Sequence record: PQ900156.1
Strand: one strand, 5' to 3'
Origin: Escherichia phage vB_EcoP_ShWW44
DNA: 64,000 nucleotides
A program made the position numbers and the translations under genes. Shown piece by piece: positions 25,107-27,673 of the stretch (position 1 is the first letter of the stretch; each line of letters opens with the position of its first letter). Below the pieces are notes generated by a model. That model saw only the letters and a program-made list of their open reading frames with translations, ran no database searches and was not told the origin of the DNA.

Positions 25107-25337
25107 TCTGGTAGGTGGCTCAGAAGCTGCTGCTAGGTGTGGTAGTGTTTATAGTCCTGATGCTACTACTGGTCAGGATTATAGACGTGTCGGCTCCATA
25201 CATAGCTTTTATCATCACTGTCATTATCCTGTGGAAATGCAGTGGTAAACACGGTGGTGACAAGCCGCCAGAGTAACAACAACCGAACCAGTGTGCAGGA
25301 ATACTCTCCCCTGTGCATTGGTTCAACTGAAGCTAAT

Positions 25338-25508
25338 ATGAACAAATTTACTATTCACTGGCTCAATGGAAAGGTTAGTTCTTTCATGGGTGAAGAACCC
25401 GTTGAAGGAAAGAAAGTATTTCACATTGAATCGGAAGGATGCAAAATCTTAGTACCGTATGCTTGGTATAAAGAAGGTGAAGTAGAAGCATTAAAAAAGA
25501 GTAGTTAA
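25338..25508 (+). CDS. small hypothetical protein (about 56 aa)
   Basis: Track ORF 25242..25508 starts with GTG; first ATG at 25338; weak RBS. Confidence 0.25.
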   Translation: MNKFTIHWLNGKVSSFMGEEPVEGKKVFHIESEGCKILVPYAWYKEGEVEALKKSS

Positions 25509-25907
25509 TATCGTGAAGGGTTCTGTTAGAATCCTTTGAGATAGGAACTCCTATCATAACCTTTCTTAACTTAATCCTTGCCGTATGGCACTGACGCTAG
25601 GGTTTATGCCCATCCGTCAGGTAGACTATTTTAAGAATGGGTTATCACAGAAAATGTAAAGCAACATTCGGGTTAATCAATGGCCTCTCTCTATAGGGGC
25701 CATTTCTGAATCTTAGGCTATATCCCAAAGGTTAGTATCTTTGGGATAAGGCTTCAGATCCCTTATAAACTAACGCTCATGTTGAGCATAACACTAACCC
25801 CTACTGGCGGGTAATTCGATACGCTAGTCCTACAGCATCGAATTGTTAGGTCTTACATGCAACATAGGGTATAAAGGGAGGATTCGTCCCCTCCCTCCTA
25901 TTATAAT

Positions 25908-25977
25908 GGTCGGGGTAGCACGTAGGCATGTGCAGAAGGTCGCTACTTCTCTCGCTGGTTCGAATCCAGCCCCTGAC
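25908..25977 (+). tRNA. probable tRNA (isotype unresolved; anticodon loop read as GTCGCTA)
   Basis: 7-bp acceptor stem GTCGGGG/CCCTGAC, D-stem GCAC/GTGC with GG in loop, perfect stem AGAAG/CTTCT, T-arm GCTGG-TTCGAAT-CCAGC; TATAAT element just upstream; variable loop only 3 nt. Confidence 0.45.
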
Positions 25978-26433
25978 CTACTGACATCCTATCAATGAGT
26001 ACATTAGGCTAACGTGCGGAGGTTTACACTGTAGCCGGTGTAGGTGGAGAAGACGGCAGGGTAGCTACCTGTGCTTAGTGTACTCTTTGATAGTTTTCGT
26101 AAGCGATTATGCGGTTTTTTAGAAATGAACCAATAACATAAATGCAAACGATGATGTTGTTCTGATGGCGGCGTAATAGCCTGTAAGTCAGCAAGGTCTT
26201 CCTATTCCTTGTAAATAAATTCGGCGCAGTGGCCCGCTGTAATTAATAATGGGCACACAACAGGTAAGAGCATTGGGTAATGTCAGCCTTGGTTCGAAGT
26301 CGAAAGACATGCGGTAATACCCAGCCAAAGTTCCAGTGCTCTTTCCGTTGTGGAAATGCAAGCACAACAAGTCCAGACGATATCTGAGTGACTTTAAAAA
26401 CAGATGGAGCCAGGTGGAATCCCTGGCAATCTA

Positions 26434-26499
26434 TTCCGGTGTAGGTACTAGTGTCGTGCACGGCATGAGTGTTCTGGTTCGAGTCCAGACGCCGGAACC
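26434..26499 (+). ncRNA. tRNA-like element: acceptor stem + T-arm + encoded CCA, no D or anticodon arm found
   Basis: 5' TCCGGTG pairs 3' CGCCGGA (one G-U); T-arm TCTGG-TTCGAGT-CCAGA; discriminator A then CCA; only 31 nt between acceptor and T-stem. Confidence 0.35.
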
Positions 26500-26597
26500 A
26501 ATTACCAGTTGCACGAGATGGCTTGGCATGTTCAAGTTTGGACTAAGTGTGACACCGCTAGATTGGAGGGCTGCTGCGGTAAGCTATAGACTCCAAC

Positions 26598-26625
26598 CGG
26601 GGGTTCGAATCCCTCACTGGTAACC
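26598..26625 (+). ncRNA. tRNA-like 3' module (T-arm + acceptor 3' strand + CCA)
   Basis: GGGGG-TTCGAAT-CCCTC, then ACTGGTA-A-CCA; only exact 5' partner TACCAGT is at 26502-26508, about 90 nt upstream. Confidence 0.3.
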
Positions 26626-26713
26626 AATTCAAAGTAGCATTGCACTAATCCATCCCGGAGTTCAAAGACCAAACATGGAGCAGTGCTACTTTGAATTAGA
26701 AGAATTAAGGTGG

Positions 26714-26752
26714 GTCTGGTGAAGTAGATAGGGTTCGATTCCCTCCGGTAGA
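26714..26752 (+). ncRNA. tRNA-like minihelix (acceptor-like stem + T-arm)
   Basis: TCTGGTG ... TAGGG-TTCGATT-CCCTC ... CGGTAGA; acceptor arms resemble those of element 26434-26499. Confidence 0.25.
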
Positions 26753-26794
26753 GTAATCTACTAGCGTGCTTGGTGCATGAATAAGACTTAATAC

Positions 26795-26822
26795 TGGTGG
26801 TTCGATTCCATCCCCCACTACC
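26795..26822 (+). ncRNA. tRNA-like 3' module (T-arm + acceptor 3' strand + CCA)
   Basis: GGTGG-TTCGATT-CCATC, then CCCCACT-A-CCA; no complementary 5' strand found within 80 nt. Confidence 0.25.
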
Positions 26823-27351
26823 AATTTGAGGTGTAACAGTTAAATCCAGTTGCCGGAAGTGCTATTCTAGATACGCTGCCAATGTGTGAACGGTAAGGCT
26901 GTACAGGACTCGGACTCCCACCTCAAACCAAAGTCGCCAGGTACTTATGGCAAACGGGTAGTAACGAACTAGTCATTCGTCAAACGCCCAACCTATTACG
27001 AGTCAGCAAGAACGCCTTCACTTAAACTTAAACAATATGAAAGCTTAACGCAGATAATATGTAGGGGTATGTAAGGATTGCGAAGAAGGAGCCAGTTAAA
27101 GCCTGGCATGACTCACCTATTAATAGAGAACATAGTCCTGATTGCATTGCACTCTAAAGACAATGCCGGTGAGACAGTCCGGCACTCTAATTATTGTAAA
27201 CATACCCACTGACGAGTGGGTATGAGTATGAGCAGACTATAATGCTCAAGTACAGTTATCTATTATCGGACTATCAATCCTGTTTGCTGGTACAAGCACC
27301 GGTGGTAATAGTTAACTGGCCTAGTCTCGTTAGCTGCGTTAAAGCTACTGA

Positions 27352-27376
27352 GTCCCTCTTCGGAGGAACTTTTTTA
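27352..27376 (+). terminator. intrinsic terminator with UUCG tetraloop closing the non-coding locus
   Basis: CCTC-ttcg-GAGG core with flanking pairs, followed by TTTTTTATTT. Confidence 0.5.
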
Positions 27377-27398
27377 TTTGAAAGTAGGAGAAATACTA

Positions 27399-27673
27399 TG
27401 GCTAAATATCGTAAAAAACCTGTTGAGATTGAAGCTTTTCAATGGGACGGTAGTCTTAATCTGAACAAAGAACCAACTTGGATAGTAGATGCTCTTCATA
27501 ATGGGGTAGTCTGGTTCTCTGGGAAGGATAATAAATTATGTATCAGAACTCTGGAGGGTATCTTAACTGCTTCCCCCAATGACTATATTATCCAAGGTAT
27601 ACATGGGGAGCTATATCCGTGTAAACCAGATATATTCCTGGAAACCTATATCAAATCAACAACCGTAAGCTGA
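27399..27673 (+). CDS. hypothetical protein (91 aa)
   Basis: Start set to ATG with strong RBS AGTAGGAGAAA (track ORF starts 27242). Confidence 0.6.

Follow-up and report, generated by a model that had tools for sequence, protein, structure and literature searches.

A same-strand array of tRNA-like modules, long hairpins and a tmRNA-type tag template in Escherichia phage vB_EcoP_ShWW44

Do clustered tRNA-like 3′ ends without an intact cloverleaf represent the remains of tRNA genes, or small RNAs built on part of the tRNA scaffold? The question is raised by a locus of about 1.9 kb (25509-27398, plus strand) in a 64,000-nt stretch of DNA from Escherichia phage vB_EcoP_ShWW44 (PQ900156.1), the whole of which is referred to here as the window. 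A first-pass annotation had recognized five near-identical T-arm motifs at this locus and had put forward both readings. Here we find that 25509-27398 is a single same-strand untranslated array in which tRNA-like modules alternate with long hairpins and a tmRNA-type tag template (Table 1). The tRNA-OTHER and pseudo labels of phage genomes, and the unannotated gaps in their tRNA clusters, may hide functional RNA families on a tRNA scaffold; the species 1 and 2 RNAs of T4 have posed the same puzzle for decades, and the comparative variation is now sufficient for experiments to be designed.

Extent and setting of the array

The window contains five copies of GGTTCRANTCC, always on the plus strand and always within 25957-26809, against a mean of 0.15 occurrences in shuffled windows, none of 100 of which reached five; the clustering described in the first-pass annotation is therefore borne out. 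ARAGORN calls only one gene over the whole window, a tRNA-Ala(cgc) at 25908-25979 (module A), and Rfam returns no match at its gathering thresholds. At relaxed thresholds the general tRNA model RF00005 is not listed in 25300-27600 even at E up to 10, and the sole tRNA-clan match in that interval is module A against tRNA-Sec (30.2 bits, threshold 47). Ordinary full-length tRNAs covering all T-arm motifs are not returned by either program, and the earlier remark that only the first motif belongs to a roughly complete tRNA holds.

There is no convincing protein gene in the region. None of its seven ORFs (44-95 aa) has a Pfam match, and only one of the seven has a PHROG match, to a 40-residue family with no assigned function. 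The array occupies the slot used for tRNA genes in N4-like relatives, where ordinary tRNAs are found in N4 (Asn, Ser, Thr, Pro), KP8 (Asn, Pro, Gln) and ECBP1 (Ile); compared with these phages, ShWW44 is without any canonical tRNA and yet keeps the mimics. The locus is mosaic among relatives, and neighbouring elements carry the annotation tRNA-OTHER or pseudo. The 5′ part of the array contains a sub-threshold STnc100-like match (25617-25712; Rfam, relaxed thresholds), and 25739-25909 resembles unannotated DNA from Kuravirus-like phages. At the other end, a terminator-like hairpin that a consensus scan did not pick up closes the array just ahead of the next gene (ATG at 27398), and N4 has a clearer terminator at the equivalent position.

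Table 1 Features of the array, with positions in the window and the basis on which each was delimited
Feature	Positions	Strand	Basis
Structured ORF-free 5′ part	25509..25907	+	88-94% conserved in Gamaleyavirus relatives
Module A, near-complete cloverleaf, tRNA-Ala(cgc)	25908..25979	+	ARAGORN
T-arm motif GGTTCGAATCC	25957 and 26602	+	pattern search
hpA, 21-bp long-range hairpin with variable apex	25989..26093	+	pairing of 25989-26009 with 26073-26093
Leader of tmRNA-type template	26094..26143	+	colinear with E. coli ssrA nucleotides 54-89
Tag reading frame, ANDDVVLMAA and two stops	26144..26179	+	Rfam tmRNA_permuted (sub-threshold); comparison of DNA versions
Helix-5-like pairing and H-type pseudoknot	26162..26224	+	covariation, 22 sequences
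Hairpin with conserved 15-nt loop	26232..26254	+	comparison across phage groups
Module U, long helix with variable apical insert	26255..26353	+	stem comparison
Module X, highly conserved, ending in hairpin GCCAGG-UGGAAUC-CCUGGC	26369..26433	+	17 loci, 89-100% identical
Module B, 66-nt tRNA-like RNA	26435..26500	+	covariation; conservation
T-arm motif GGTTCGAGTCC	26476	+	pattern search
Module C, 124-nt tRNA-like RNA	26503..26626	+	covariation
hpC, 17-bp spacer hairpin	26627..26700	+	fold z = -6.1
Module D, 115-nt nested tRNA-like RNA	26709..26823	+	covariation
T-arm motif GGTTCGATTCC	26732 and 26799	+	pattern search
hpD, long-range stem UUUGAGGUG...CACCUCAAA around ~85 nt	26826..26927	+	identity to N4, 8 loci
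Module Y, conserved 3′ element	27049..27190	+	stem covariation, conserved loop
Terminator-like hairpin followed by T run	27352..27379	+	direct reading of sequence

Structure and conservation of the modules and hairpins

Module B has a 7-bp acceptor stem (UCCGGUG/CGCCGGA), a linker UAGG, a T arm at 26473-26489 and A73-CCA, and a single 10-bp hairpin capped by UGCA replaces both the D and the anticodon arms. The acceptor stem of module C (TACCAGT/ACTGGTA) is combined with internal hairpins, a T arm at 26599-26615 and A-CCA, and its 6-bp "anticodon" stem closes a 22-nt loop, GGCUGCUGCGGUAAGCUAUAGA, that is invariant in eight sequences. In module D an outer acceptor stem, formed by GGTGGG (26709-26714) and CCCACT (26814-26819), encloses two T arms (26729-26745 and 26796-26812) and two small hairpins. 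The spacing between acceptor strand and T stem is 31 nt in B, as had been stated (correct at 26435-26496), 89 nt in C and 80 nt in D, compared with ~38-55 nt in canonical tRNAs, and none of the three shows the D arm, 5-bp anticodon stem and 7-nt loop of a canonical cloverleaf. The tRNA top half, taken as a 7-bp acceptor stem, a T arm (5 bp, UUCRANY loop) and discriminator-CCA, is complete in B and C (7/7 pairs); D has 6/7 acceptor pairs and a non-conserved CCA, and A has the stem and T arm and no CCA. The three encoded A-CCA ends noted earlier are all present, as A-CCA-AT at 26497-26502, 26623-26628 and 26820-26825. ACCAAT is the invariable end of B and C and a tail shared with genuine tRNAs of N4-like phages, whereas the A-CCA that D carries in ShWW44 becomes CCA, CCT, CCC or TCC in relatives. 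Two similar acceptor arms had also been proposed; TCCGGTG is indeed the acceptor strand of B, but TCTGGTG (26716) lies inside module D, where only CTGG (26717-26720) pairs, with CCGG (26746-26749) past the inner T arm. Position 3:70 is C-G in B and C and U-A in D, so that G3:U70 is absent from all three and AlaRS should not charge them as it does tmRNA.

Comparison with relatives showed B, C and D to be conserved, with compensatory changes, in N4-like phages that belong to three genera (relatives of the N4, Gamaleyavirus and Kaypoctavirus groups). In alignments of only 7-8 related sequences, gathered by conserved core patterns in a way that favours conserved-looking results, the helices are 98.1% paired in B (4 compensatory pairs), 99.5% in C (5 compensatory pairs, three of them in the acceptor stem) and 97.5% in D (13 compensatory pairs over six helices). 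Sliding the pairing partners by 1-3 columns left 0-3 compensatory pairs, and no shuffle matched the covariation score. Module B of N4 is 95.6% identical to that of ShWW44 amid flanking DNA that cannot be aligned. Fold z-scores are -2.2 for B and unremarkable for C (-0.8) and D (-0.95). Each family has its own insert in place of the D and anticodon arms, and these inserts are themselves conserved. A census of 22 N4-like loci yielded further families of the same design, in which acceptor stem, T arm and NCCA are combined with an insert of 31-113 nt, and an acceptor consensus UCC(G/A)G...C(C/U)GGA-ACCA is common to several unrelated insert families. The first-pass annotation had overlooked these larger-insert families, the drift of the module D CCA and the tag template at 26094-26254.

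Module A, with its T arm at 25954-25970 and a 7-nt anticodon loop, is closer to an ordinary tRNA; its CCA is not encoded, it lacks G3:U70, it has U at position 37, and its fold z-score is -3.2. In its ECBP1 orthologue the acceptor and anticodon stems are interrupted by A.C and U.U mismatches, which, together with the drifting CCA of module D, the mosaic locus and the tRNA-OTHER or pseudo labels of its neighbours, would suit pseudogenes, that is, tRNA genes now decayed or disrupted and functionless. For B, C and D decay is contradicted because helices and inserts are conserved across genera with compensatory changes, and B persists where its flanks do not. Judged from these comparisons, B, C and D appear not to be decayed tRNA genes, and for the modules as a whole we regard the pseudogene reading as very improbable. 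The modules might instead be atypical tRNAs that do decode, for instance once introns or expanded loops have been removed. The anticodon loop of module A could be cited for this, as could tRNAs of some relatives in which the D arms are proper and the anticodon region is enlarged by a long insertion (L076:1017), but B offers no site for an anticodon, the loop of C is invariant and far exceeds seven nucleotides, the region returns no RF00005 match (E up to 10), and bacteria are not known to splice out inserts of 15-60 nt; we consider this reading extremely improbable.

The remaining elements of the array are mostly long helices. The 3′ strand of hpA continues directly into the leader of the tag template; its stem (CCTATCAATGAG...CTCTTTGATAG) is conserved and its apex is replaced in KP8, L015, L062 and others. 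Module U forms the helix CACAAC-A-GG-U-AAGAGCAUU ... AGUGCUCUU-U-CC-GUUGUG, whose stem covaries in Felix-type phages (AAGGGTAT/AGTACCCT) and of which lambdoid prophages carry a second copy upstream of the template. In N4-like phages module X always lies directly 5′ of a B-type module, and its hairpin appears in SEzh_1 as the compensatory variant GCATG/CATGC. The spacer hairpins are very stable: none of 200 shuffles folds as well as hpC, at the base of which an upstream CCAAUUC pairs with a downstream GAAUUGG; in relatives the stems are entirely different and the AATTC...GAATT base is retained. The fold of hpD is not better than that of shuffles; its sequence is 98.9% identical to N4, with 92-99% identity over eight loci. 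Module Y contains the hairpin GCCGG-UGAGACAGU-CCGGC (27165-27183), whose stem covaries (GCCGG/CCGGC, ATTGG/CCAAT, ACTGG/CCAGT) around a conserved loop, and its 5′ part is present also in SEzh_1.

The tag template and its distribution

Between hpA and module U lies a tmRNA-type template (26094-26254) with a GCA resume codon, ten codons encoding ANDDVVLMAA, a stop, a covarying helix and a pseudoknot. Its leader contains the in-frame stops TAG and TGA and has AUAAAU directly before the resume codon, which places U at -5 and A at -4. The frame reads GCA AAC GAT GAT GTT GTT CTG ATG GCG GCG TAA TAG and has no start codon. Ten codons and a stop are found in all 23 DNA versions compared, and codons 1-3 and 10 change only synonymously among them, which argues for the tag being translated; 26144-26176 thus combines the resume codon, missing start codon, stop and peptide-level constraint of a tmRNA tag. 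The best Rfam match of the template is RF04321 (tmRNA_permuted; 31 bits, E = 6e-4, threshold 47; 27-33 bits in relatives), in an alignment that bypasses the whole tRNA domain, reducing 113 model positions to 13 nt, and RF00023 scores 12-15 bits (threshold 47). Neither ARAGORN nor Rfam made a tmRNA call in any phage context tested.

The helix-5-like pairing joins CTGA (26162-26165) to TCAG (26188-26191), and the pseudoknot consists of stem 1, CAAGG (26192-26196) with CCTTG (26207-26211), and stem 2, in which the loop CCTA (26201-26204) pairs with TCGG (26221-26224). Over 22 sequences, 99.3% of cells are paired, with five compensatory pairs (34 cells) against 0-1 in slid controls. The hairpin that follows has a 15-nt loop (GCTGTAATTAATAAT in ShWW44; consensus GGTGTGATTAATAA) on stems that are wholly different in each phage group (GCCC/GGGC, TCCCTGA/TCAGGGA, GGCGGGAG/CTCCCGCC, GCCCAC/GTGGGC). 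PK1 was not convincingly found by inspection and PK3-4 is not recognizable, other helices (module U) standing downstream of the template instead. No tRNA-like domain encloses the template: in 49 representative loci the acceptor stems all close locally, and for no downstream T arm with NCCA was a 7/7 complementary 5′ strand found at a conserved position upstream of the tag. A search for conserved complementarity between template and modules found none.

N4-like, Felix-, Vi01- and Skate-like phages carry the template without annotation, as do lambdoid prophages and Klebsiella plasmids. It has spread to at least five phage groups, to prophages of pathogenic E. coli (e.g. O26:H11) and to Klebsiella plasmids; its lambdoid-prophage form occurs in 137 of 5426 E. 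coli genomes, in the late-operon leader, which in Shiga-toxin phages is the site of tRNA and toxin genes. A tRNA or tRNA-like gene lies ~100-450 nt 3′ of the tag in every context but SEzh_1. The template of Felix-type phages has an ordinary tRNA-Arg at its border and a promoter-like sequence only ~45 nt ahead of the tag; in wV8 an element with G3:U70 sits where relatives have an ordinary tRNA-Arg(UCU). The SEzh_1 template has its own promoter-like sequence and terminator hairpin in a 49-kb genome in which we found neither tRNA nor T-arm module, and N4 has modules B and X without the template. Since each can thus occur alone, template and modules need not function together.

Candidate roles and likeness to known RNAs

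The template resembles one-piece tmRNA (SsrA) in its resume codon, U-5/A-4 and lack of a start codon, in a 10-codon tag that starts AND and ends hydrophobic-Ala-Ala before the stop, in a helix that takes in the end of the tag and is followed by a pseudoknot, and in being colinear with E. coli ssrA nucleotides 54-149; modules B-D share acceptor stem, T arm and ACCA with the tRNA-like domain. Unlike one-piece tmRNA, the template lacks an enclosing tRNA-like domain, G3:U70 and a recognizable PK1 or PK3-4. The sub-threshold RF04321 match points to the two-piece, permuted tmRNAs of alpha- and beta-proteobacteria and cyanobacteria, but the coding piece of these starts with a 5′ acceptor strand that pairs to the acceptor piece, and no such strand or pairing is found at the template. 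Nor is the permuted order seen: the elements upstream of the template (module A; tRNAs in KP8 and wV8) are complete by themselves, and no complementary acceptor strand was found between them and the tag.

These comparisons bear on whether one module could be the missing acceptor piece of a split phage tmRNA, which would be charged and, with the template, add ANDDVVLMAA to stalled chains. Two-piece tmRNAs occur in nature (PMC11915505), a template devoid of its own tRNA-like domain lies no more than 260 nt from module B, the outline of B is appropriate (acceptor stem, T arm, a helix for the anticodon arm, a D region that is reduced but has GG, A73-CCA), and a tRNA or tRNA-like gene follows the tag almost everywhere. 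However, no module has G3:U70, every acceptor stem is locally closed, nothing conserved ahead of the tag could serve as a 5′ strand for any 3′ strand, template-module complementarity was not found, each partner occurs without the other (N4, SEzh_1), and the element adjoining the template differs in every phage group. We judge this explanation distinctly unlikely.

An even chance, in our estimate, attaches to the reading that we prefer, in which the locus is a polycistronic RNA-gene array whose tRNA-like top halves serve as handles for RNase P and 3′ maturation and whose released RNAs are tRNA/tmRNA mimics. The five T-arm motifs would then mark four genes, in the N4-like tRNA slot, for tRNA-shaped RNAs unable to decode, each with an acceptor stem stacked on a canonical T arm, with A-CCA-AU encoded in B and C, and with the D and anticodon arms replaced by a 10-bp hairpin (B), an invariant 22-nt loop and extra hairpins (C) or a second T arm and hairpins (D). 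The whole array would be transcribed as one precursor, host RNase P would cleave at the 5′ end of each acceptor stem, and host 3′-end enzymes would trim back to CCA; the spacer hairpins, which pair CCA with a downstream UGG, may open first, possibly via RNase III. The tRNA-like ends would both punctuate the precursor and stabilize the released RNAs, and the inserts of these RNAs would be displayed to host factors. We think that they would most probably act on ribosome rescue and tRNA handling (SmpB, EF-Tu, CCA enzyme, RNase P), because a tmRNA-derived tag template neighbours the modules and B has the outline of the tmRNA tRNA-like domain; the link to ribosome rescue is plausible.

Processing might also be the whole of the matter, the modules acting as punctuation only, cut by RNase P and 3′ exonuclease to free neighbouring RNAs such as the tag template and the hairpin RNAs, with no later role. 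The modules do flank other conserved RNAs, the module X-B and template-C junctions are fixed, the ACCAAT tail stands at all junctions, and in Felix-type phages an ordinary tRNA-Arg takes the place next to the template. Pure punctuation would, however, have nothing to release between B and C, which directly adjoin (26500/26503), would not need inserts that are invariant or covarying, and fails to account for the SEzh_1 template, with a promoter-like sequence, a terminator hairpin and no tRNA-like element; we consider it unlikely. The earlier proposal of small RNAs mimicking tRNA 3′ ends stands as regards anatomy, given the acceptor stem and canonical T arm, with A-CCA in B and C, whereas the decoy role attached to it is a proposal. 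As decoys or sponges, the modules would occupy host defence effectors that read acceptor, T arm and CCA (tRNA-cleaving or -modifying toxins, nucleases), shielding the tRNA pool independently of the template. They keep exactly the enzyme-read part of a tRNA, A73-CCA included, and do without an anticodon; one acceptor consensus recurs in several unrelated insert families; ShWW44 has lost all canonical tRNAs and keeps the mimics; and tRNA tails and anticodon loops are reported to be immune targets (PMC12851939, PMC13191261). Invariant inserts, such as the 22-nt loop of module C, suggest a specific partner over a generic tRNA surface, and we hold the decoy role to be doubtful.

A bolder reading, likewise doubtful at present, is that the template (ANDDVVLMAA and variants) is a mobile and hitherto unrecognized "half-tmRNA" of enterobacterial phages and prophages which, having no tRNA-like domain of its own, would be fed to stalled ribosomes via host SmpB/tmRNA or via separate acceptor RNAs such as B-D. 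The phage could then re-tag or divert rescue products during infection or prophage induction, template and tRNA-shaped RNAs being the halves of a split trans-translation toolkit. The template is a testable oddity, with synonymous codon change and yet no start codon or tRNA-like domain. Its use would imply either a new mode of template loading into stalled ribosomes or a virus that manipulates ribosome rescue and ClpXP degradation; unused, it would still mark an abundant unannotated RNA gene.

The tmRNA relative of mycobacteriophage DS6A was reported as little more than a tRNA-like domain, and strong inhibition of tmRNA, perhaps through titration of SmpB, is described for a molecule of this kind whether or not it can be charged (PMC4131195). 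Judged from the published description of that element, module B has its outline only, with acceptor stem, T arm, CCA, a helix for the anticodon arm and no tag frame, and without G3:U70. In its 5′ part and T arm module B may be more akin to a tRNA-Asn-type gene such as E. coli tRNA-Asn. The bacterial Y RNAs termed YrlA are non-coding; in them a tRNA-like domain, made up of a T arm, a D-arm mimic and an acceptor-like stem, continues into a long helix, RNase P cleavage and CCA addition occur in some of them, and phages have YrlA as well (PMC4201824). YrlA lies beside a Ro60/Rsr gene and carries the Ro-binding motif GNCGAAN0-1G, whereas the ends of the array modules form an acceptor stem and not a Ro-binding stem; no YrlA match appeared in an Rfam scan at E up to 10 with a library whose YrlA model is unconfirmed, and no Ro60-type annotation was seen in the relatives' regions viewed.

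A close parallel in arrangement is with T4 rnaC (species 1) and rnaD (species 2), non-coding RNAs of 119-139 nt inside the T4 tRNA cluster and on the tRNA strand, which are not known to have a decoding anticodon arm. The array modules are likewise non-decoding, same-strand RNAs in a tRNA slot with a tRNA-like 3′ portion. As in the modules, the T arm close to the 3′ end of rnaC (CCGGGTTCGAATCCCGG) is canonical, and the rnaD terminus, GCGCACCA, precedes AAT (CACCA+AAU), comparable to the A-CCA-AT of modules B-D. No sequence similarity is obvious by eye in the unaligned sequences, and a tmRNA-type tag template, which adjoins the modules in ShWW44, was not seen in the part of the T4 tRNA cluster examined. 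Unlike rnaC and rnaD, the array modules have complete, locally closed acceptor stems of 6-7 bp and fall into several insert families.

T-arm modules and their genomic setting

The finding at 25509-27398 is real and amounts to more than a cluster of broken tRNAs: the array joins T4-like, putatively stable RNAs on a tRNA scaffold with a tmRNA-derived gene that has no tRNA-like domain. A pattern search of the window for GGTTCRANTCC returned five copies, each on the + strand (25957, 26476, 26602, 26732 and 26799), a number never reached in shuffled sequence (mean 0.15). A script search for T arms with a 7-nt strand behind them and a complementary strand upstream recovered four closed modules, of which B, C and D terminate in A-CCA-AT. 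The five motifs, their spacing and the A-CCA ends stand as the first-pass annotation described them, but TCTGGTG (26716), which it took for an acceptor strand, sits inside module D instead.

Coordinates of the main elements of the array
Element	Window position	Strand	Remarks
Module A	25908-25979	+	acceptor strand to T stem 38 nt; without CCA
Tag template	26094-26254		tag frame 26144-26179
Module U	26255-26353		
Module X	26369-26433		65 nt
Module B	26435-26500	+	acceptor strand to T stem 31 nt
Module C	26503-26626	+	acceptor strand to T stem 89 nt
Module D	26709-26823	+	spacing 80 nt; second, inner T arm at 26729
Module Y	27049-27190		hairpin 27165-27183

Only the first T-arm element had been considered a near-complete tRNA, and ARAGORN agrees, calling module A, as tRNA-Ala(cgc), as the sole gene in the window. 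Rfam at curated thresholds gave no match in the window; with relaxed thresholds across 25300-27600, the general tRNA model listed none, and the only tRNA-clan match was that of module A to tRNA-Sec (30.2 of 47 bits). The tool part of the tRNAscan/ARAGORN/Rfam check, run with ARAGORN and Rfam, returned no full-length tRNAs covering the remaining motifs. That the modules are genuine decoding tRNAs is the least probable of the readings weighed here.

The window phage belongs to Gamaleyavirus, among the G7C-like phages of the N4-like Schitoviridae; over segment 25480-27420 it shares 97.5% identity with phage St11Ph5. The array is flanked by + strand genes, with the giant virion RNA polymerase ORF just downstream on the opposite strand. 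The ORFs inside are short and match no protein family, and a protein-coding reading of the region was rejected on that ground. The same slot holds a 1.5-kb gap with tRNA-Asn, -Ser, -Thr and -Pro in N4, tRNA-Asn, -Pro and -Gln in KP8, and tRNA-Ile in ECBP1. No Rfam-threshold tRNA occurs in this phage (window 1-64000), which has kept the mimics and lost the real tRNAs, whereas ordinary tRNAs persist in the slot of those three relatives. The locus is mosaic, modules having been gained, lost and swapped among relatives, and its breakpoints often coincide with the common ...ACCAAT tails. A scan for sigma-70 promoters and terminators gave matches no more frequent than in shuffles.

Conserved folds of the modules

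The alignment with N4-like relatives proposed by the first-pass annotation revealed compensatory changes in modules B (4), C (5) and D (13), in alignments that are small, of related sequences, and gathered by conserved core patterns. Module B is 95.6% identical in N4, where the bulk of the surrounding gap is unalignable. Its proposed fold comprises an 8-bp acceptor stem, a 9-bp hairpin with a UGCA cap and a 5-bp T stem; it is 98.1% paired, with four pairs changed on both sides, in seven non-identical sequences that represent N4, Gamaleyavirus, Kaypoctavirus and metagenomic relatives. Its covariation score was reached by none of 500 shuffles, and slid partners give 0-1 such pairs. Module C is 99.5% paired in eight sequences; three of its five compensatory pairs lie in the acceptor stem (TACCAGT/ACTGGTA, TATCAGT/ACTGATA, TACTGGT/ACCAGTA), and no sequence differs in the 22-nt loop that its 6-bp 'anticodon' stem closes. 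In module D (seven sequences, 97.5% paired) the compensatory pairs are spread over six helices, both T arms among them; its outer acceptor stem varies as GGTGGG/CCCACT, GACGGG/CCCGTT and GGCAAG/CTTGCC, and its 3' tail among relatives reads CCA, CCT, CCC or TCC.

Since these folds are conserved with compensatory changes, simple decay, put forward in the suggestion of decayed tRNA genes, is excluded for B, C and D. The case is weakest for module A, which folds well (z = -3.2) but has neither CCA nor G3:U70, and whose ECBP1 orthologue carries stem mismatches. Taken over the modules together, a pseudogene origin is very improbable, ranking just ahead of decoding tRNAs.

Further families of the same design (acceptor stem, canonical T arm, NCCA) emerged from a census of 22 N4-like loci, their inserts ranging from 31 to 113 nt. 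A 'long-B' family has an acceptor consensus in common with B (UCCAGGA...UCCUGGA-ACCA), and some are tRNAs with a GNRA-capped extension instead of an anticodon arm. The closest described analogues are the T4 species 1 and 2 RNAs (rnaC and rnaD, positions 1409-1672 of the T4 locus L101), which lie inside the T4 tRNA cluster. In species 1 RNA a canonical T arm lies close to the 3' end, and species 2 RNA ends in CACCA-AAT (GCGCACCA followed by AAT), the tail style of the modules here. The idea of tRNA mimicry is also common to Y RNAs, which require a Ro60 context (PMC4201824); a Y RNA identity is not supported, as the relaxed Rfam scan gave no YrlA match and the regions of relatives that were viewed showed no Ro60-type annotation.

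As a separate observation, a 32-nt element, GCAGG-AGAGCTTCG(G/A)AAGAACAAGGTG-CCTGT, takes the place of the anticodon arm in two settings: a tRNA-like gene of an N4-like contig (L063:4599-4690) and, about 250-310 nt past the tag, a tRNA-like cloverleaf following the template in lambdoid prophages (L023). It resembles a portable RNA module that has been inserted into differing tRNA scaffolds.

The tag template and the search for its tRNA-like domain

A tmRNA-type tag template lies inside the noted array and was overlooked in the first reading. In the relaxed Rfam scan, the permuted tmRNA model gave a sub-threshold match at 26073-26176 (31 bits, E = 6e-4), with the aligned part AUAAAU GCA AAC GAU GAU GUU GUU CUG AUG GCG GCG UAA. 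The tag frame has no start codon, and stops lie in frame upstream. U-5/A-4 ahead of the resume codon correspond to U85/A86 of E. coli ssrA, bases to which a role has been attributed, and the template segment is colinear with ssrA nucleotides 54-149. A helix including the tag end and an H-type pseudoknot are 99.3% paired in 22 diverse sequences, with five compensatory pairs (34 cells) vs 0-1 in slid controls.

BLAST showed window 26089-26275 to be conserved, unannotated, in very different phages: Skatevirus SEzh_1 (84% identity), Kuttervirus PhaxI (80%), Felixounavirus wV8 (71%) and Webervirus-like Klebsiella phages, as well as lambdoid prophages and Klebsiella plasmids. The latter, of about 110 kb and typed non-mobilizable, we take to be phage-plasmids. 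In all, at least five phage groups carry the conserved template, and it is annotated in none. A pattern scan of IMG/VR yielded 83 template loci in 23 distinct DNA versions, all with the ten codons and stop, encoding ANDDVVLMAA, ANDNVFLAVA, ANDSEVLMAA, ANDEQFLAVA and single-residue variants. Codons 1-3 and 10 change only synonymously at the third position (GCA/GCT, AAC/AAT, GAT/GAC, GCG/GCT/GCC), and codon 7 is invariant. Of 5426 complete E. coli genomes, 137 carry the template core, always on the chromosome and never annotated; strain 11368 (O26:H11) has it between the Q antiterminator and holin genes. A wider lambdoid query that includes flanking modules reaches 464 E. coli genomes, and its parts beyond the core also match 264 plasmid places.

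Literature searches on phage or prophage tmRNA-like genes and on these tag peptides returned only tmRNA database papers as relevant. The phage tmRNAs named in a 2014 survey are those of mycobacteriophages and Bacillus phage G (PMC4131195). The template appears to be undescribed in the literature searched, the 79 phage sequences counted by the 2025 tmRNA database (PMC11915505) lying outside the comparison. The tRNA-like-domain element of mycobacteriophage DS6A, sought as a direct comparison, was not found by ARAGORN, Rfam or the T-loop pattern.

The template may be likened to the mRNA-like half of tmRNA; it does not qualify as either a one-piece or a permuted tmRNA, for it is not enclosed by a tRNA-like domain, lacks G3:U70 and falls short of the curated score. 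In none of the template contexts is a tmRNA called by ARAGORN or Rfam. Across 49 representative loci, all T arms downstream that carry an NCCA tail close their acceptor stems locally, and no complementary strand upstream of the tag was found at a conserved position.

Several candidate domains were rejected. A one-piece tmRNA across 26035-26502 was suggested by an 11-nt repeat, CCGGTGTAGGT (26036 and 26436), as distal 5' acceptor strand; the copy at 26036 is part of a local hairpin in the apex of the long hairpin hpA, is missing in KP8, the relative loci L062 and L078, and others, and turns up in L054, a locus lacking module B. The place of a tRNA-like element of wV8 with G3:U70 and A73 is taken in relatives by an ordinary tRNA-Arg(UCU). 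The KP8 terminal hairpin that repeats the upstream tRNA acceptor stem (TCCCCGT/ACGGGGA) is not in ECBP1 or other variant-2 phages. The long-range acceptor candidate GCTGTTT of Kuttervirus is taken up by a local 12-bp hairpin, and the plasmid L100, which is related to L077, lacks the L077 candidate GAGTGAT. On inspection, a PK1 pairing between the leader CTTTGCGG and CCACAAAG showed no covariation between groups, and a duplex of the template with host ssrA was no better than shuffles (-73.7 vs a shuffle mean of -79.7 kcal/mol).

In SEzh_1 the template is flanked by promoter-like sequence and a terminator hairpin, and the 49-kb genome lacks, over its full length, any tRNA, tmRNA or excess of T-loop motifs; N4 has modules X and B and no template. 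Template and tRNA-like modules are therefore separable. That the modules are acceptor pieces of a split tmRNA is accordingly doubtful, if better placed than a pseudogene origin. In several N4-like lineages, A-ACCA-AT directly follows the template's last hairpin (e.g. KP8 ...ACGGGGAACCAATAT), so its 3' end may be matured like that of a tRNA in those phages. In lambdoid prophages, a tRNA-like cloverleaf ending in G-CCA directly follows module U.

Proposed working of the array and its other elements

Taking motifs, conserved folds, array organisation and tag template as observations, we infer a mechanism in which transcription of the array would yield a single precursor or a small number of them. 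The acceptor/T-arm top halves would be read by RNase P and 3'-end enzymes, excising B, C and D as stable RNAs, and the same cuts would set the ends of neighbouring RNAs. Spacer hairpins are predicted to pair the CCA with a downstream UGG, and a double-strand-specific nuclease may open them first. Pure punctuation, in which such cuts are the whole role of the modules, is improbable, though somewhat less so than a split tmRNA. On the main reading, the released modules would display, on a tRNA scaffold, inserts that are either invariant or covarying.

The modules could thereby act as top-half mimics toward host proteins that handle tRNA or tmRNA, a general reading to which we assign an even chance. 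About half of that share falls to ribosome rescue as the specific target: module B shares the outline of the tRNA-like domain of tmRNA, and a molecule consisting of that domain only is reported to inhibit tmRNA, chargeable or not (PMC4131195). The same tRNA scaffold could instead serve as a decoy for tRNA-targeting defences, an unlikely reading that nevertheless heads the rivals, followed in descending order by punctuation, split tmRNA, pseudogenes and decoding tRNAs.

Where ACCAAUU ends a tRNA-like module, a long hairpin comes next (window 26497-26510, 26623-26640, 26690-26708 and 26820-26835). At its base CCAAUUC pairs with GAAUUGG, so that the CCA would be sequestered in the precursor. The spacer hairpins are very stable (hpC, z = -6.1), and their stems are swapped wholesale among relatives.

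Module U is a long helix (AAGAGCAUU/AGUGCUCUU together with CACAAC/GUUGUG) whose apical inserts are interchangeable (also in the relative loci L023 and L011), and lies on either side of the tag template, depending on the phage. Module X, 89-100% identical in 17 loci, closes with a hairpin whose UGGAAUC loop is T-loop-like; in N4-like phages it always stands directly 5' of B-type modules, and it also occurs in SEzh_1, where module B is absent. The module Y hairpin has a conserved loop, UGAGACAGU, on a covarying stem (GCCGG/CCGGC here, ATTGG/CCAAT in N4, ACTGG/CCAGT in KP8), and part of this module follows the template RNA of SEzh_1.

Directly upstream of module A, window 25739-25909 contains a strong hairpin (AGGGAGG...CCTCCCT) and is 72-78% similar to unannotated DNA of IME267, EK010 and SU10, phages of about 76-78 kb that we take to be Kuravirus-like. 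The Rfam model of the Salmonella sRNA STnc100 matched window 25617-25712 below threshold (32 bits vs 47, E = 1.3e-4), mainly through a GC-rich hairpin, GGCCUCUCUCUAUAGGGGCC.
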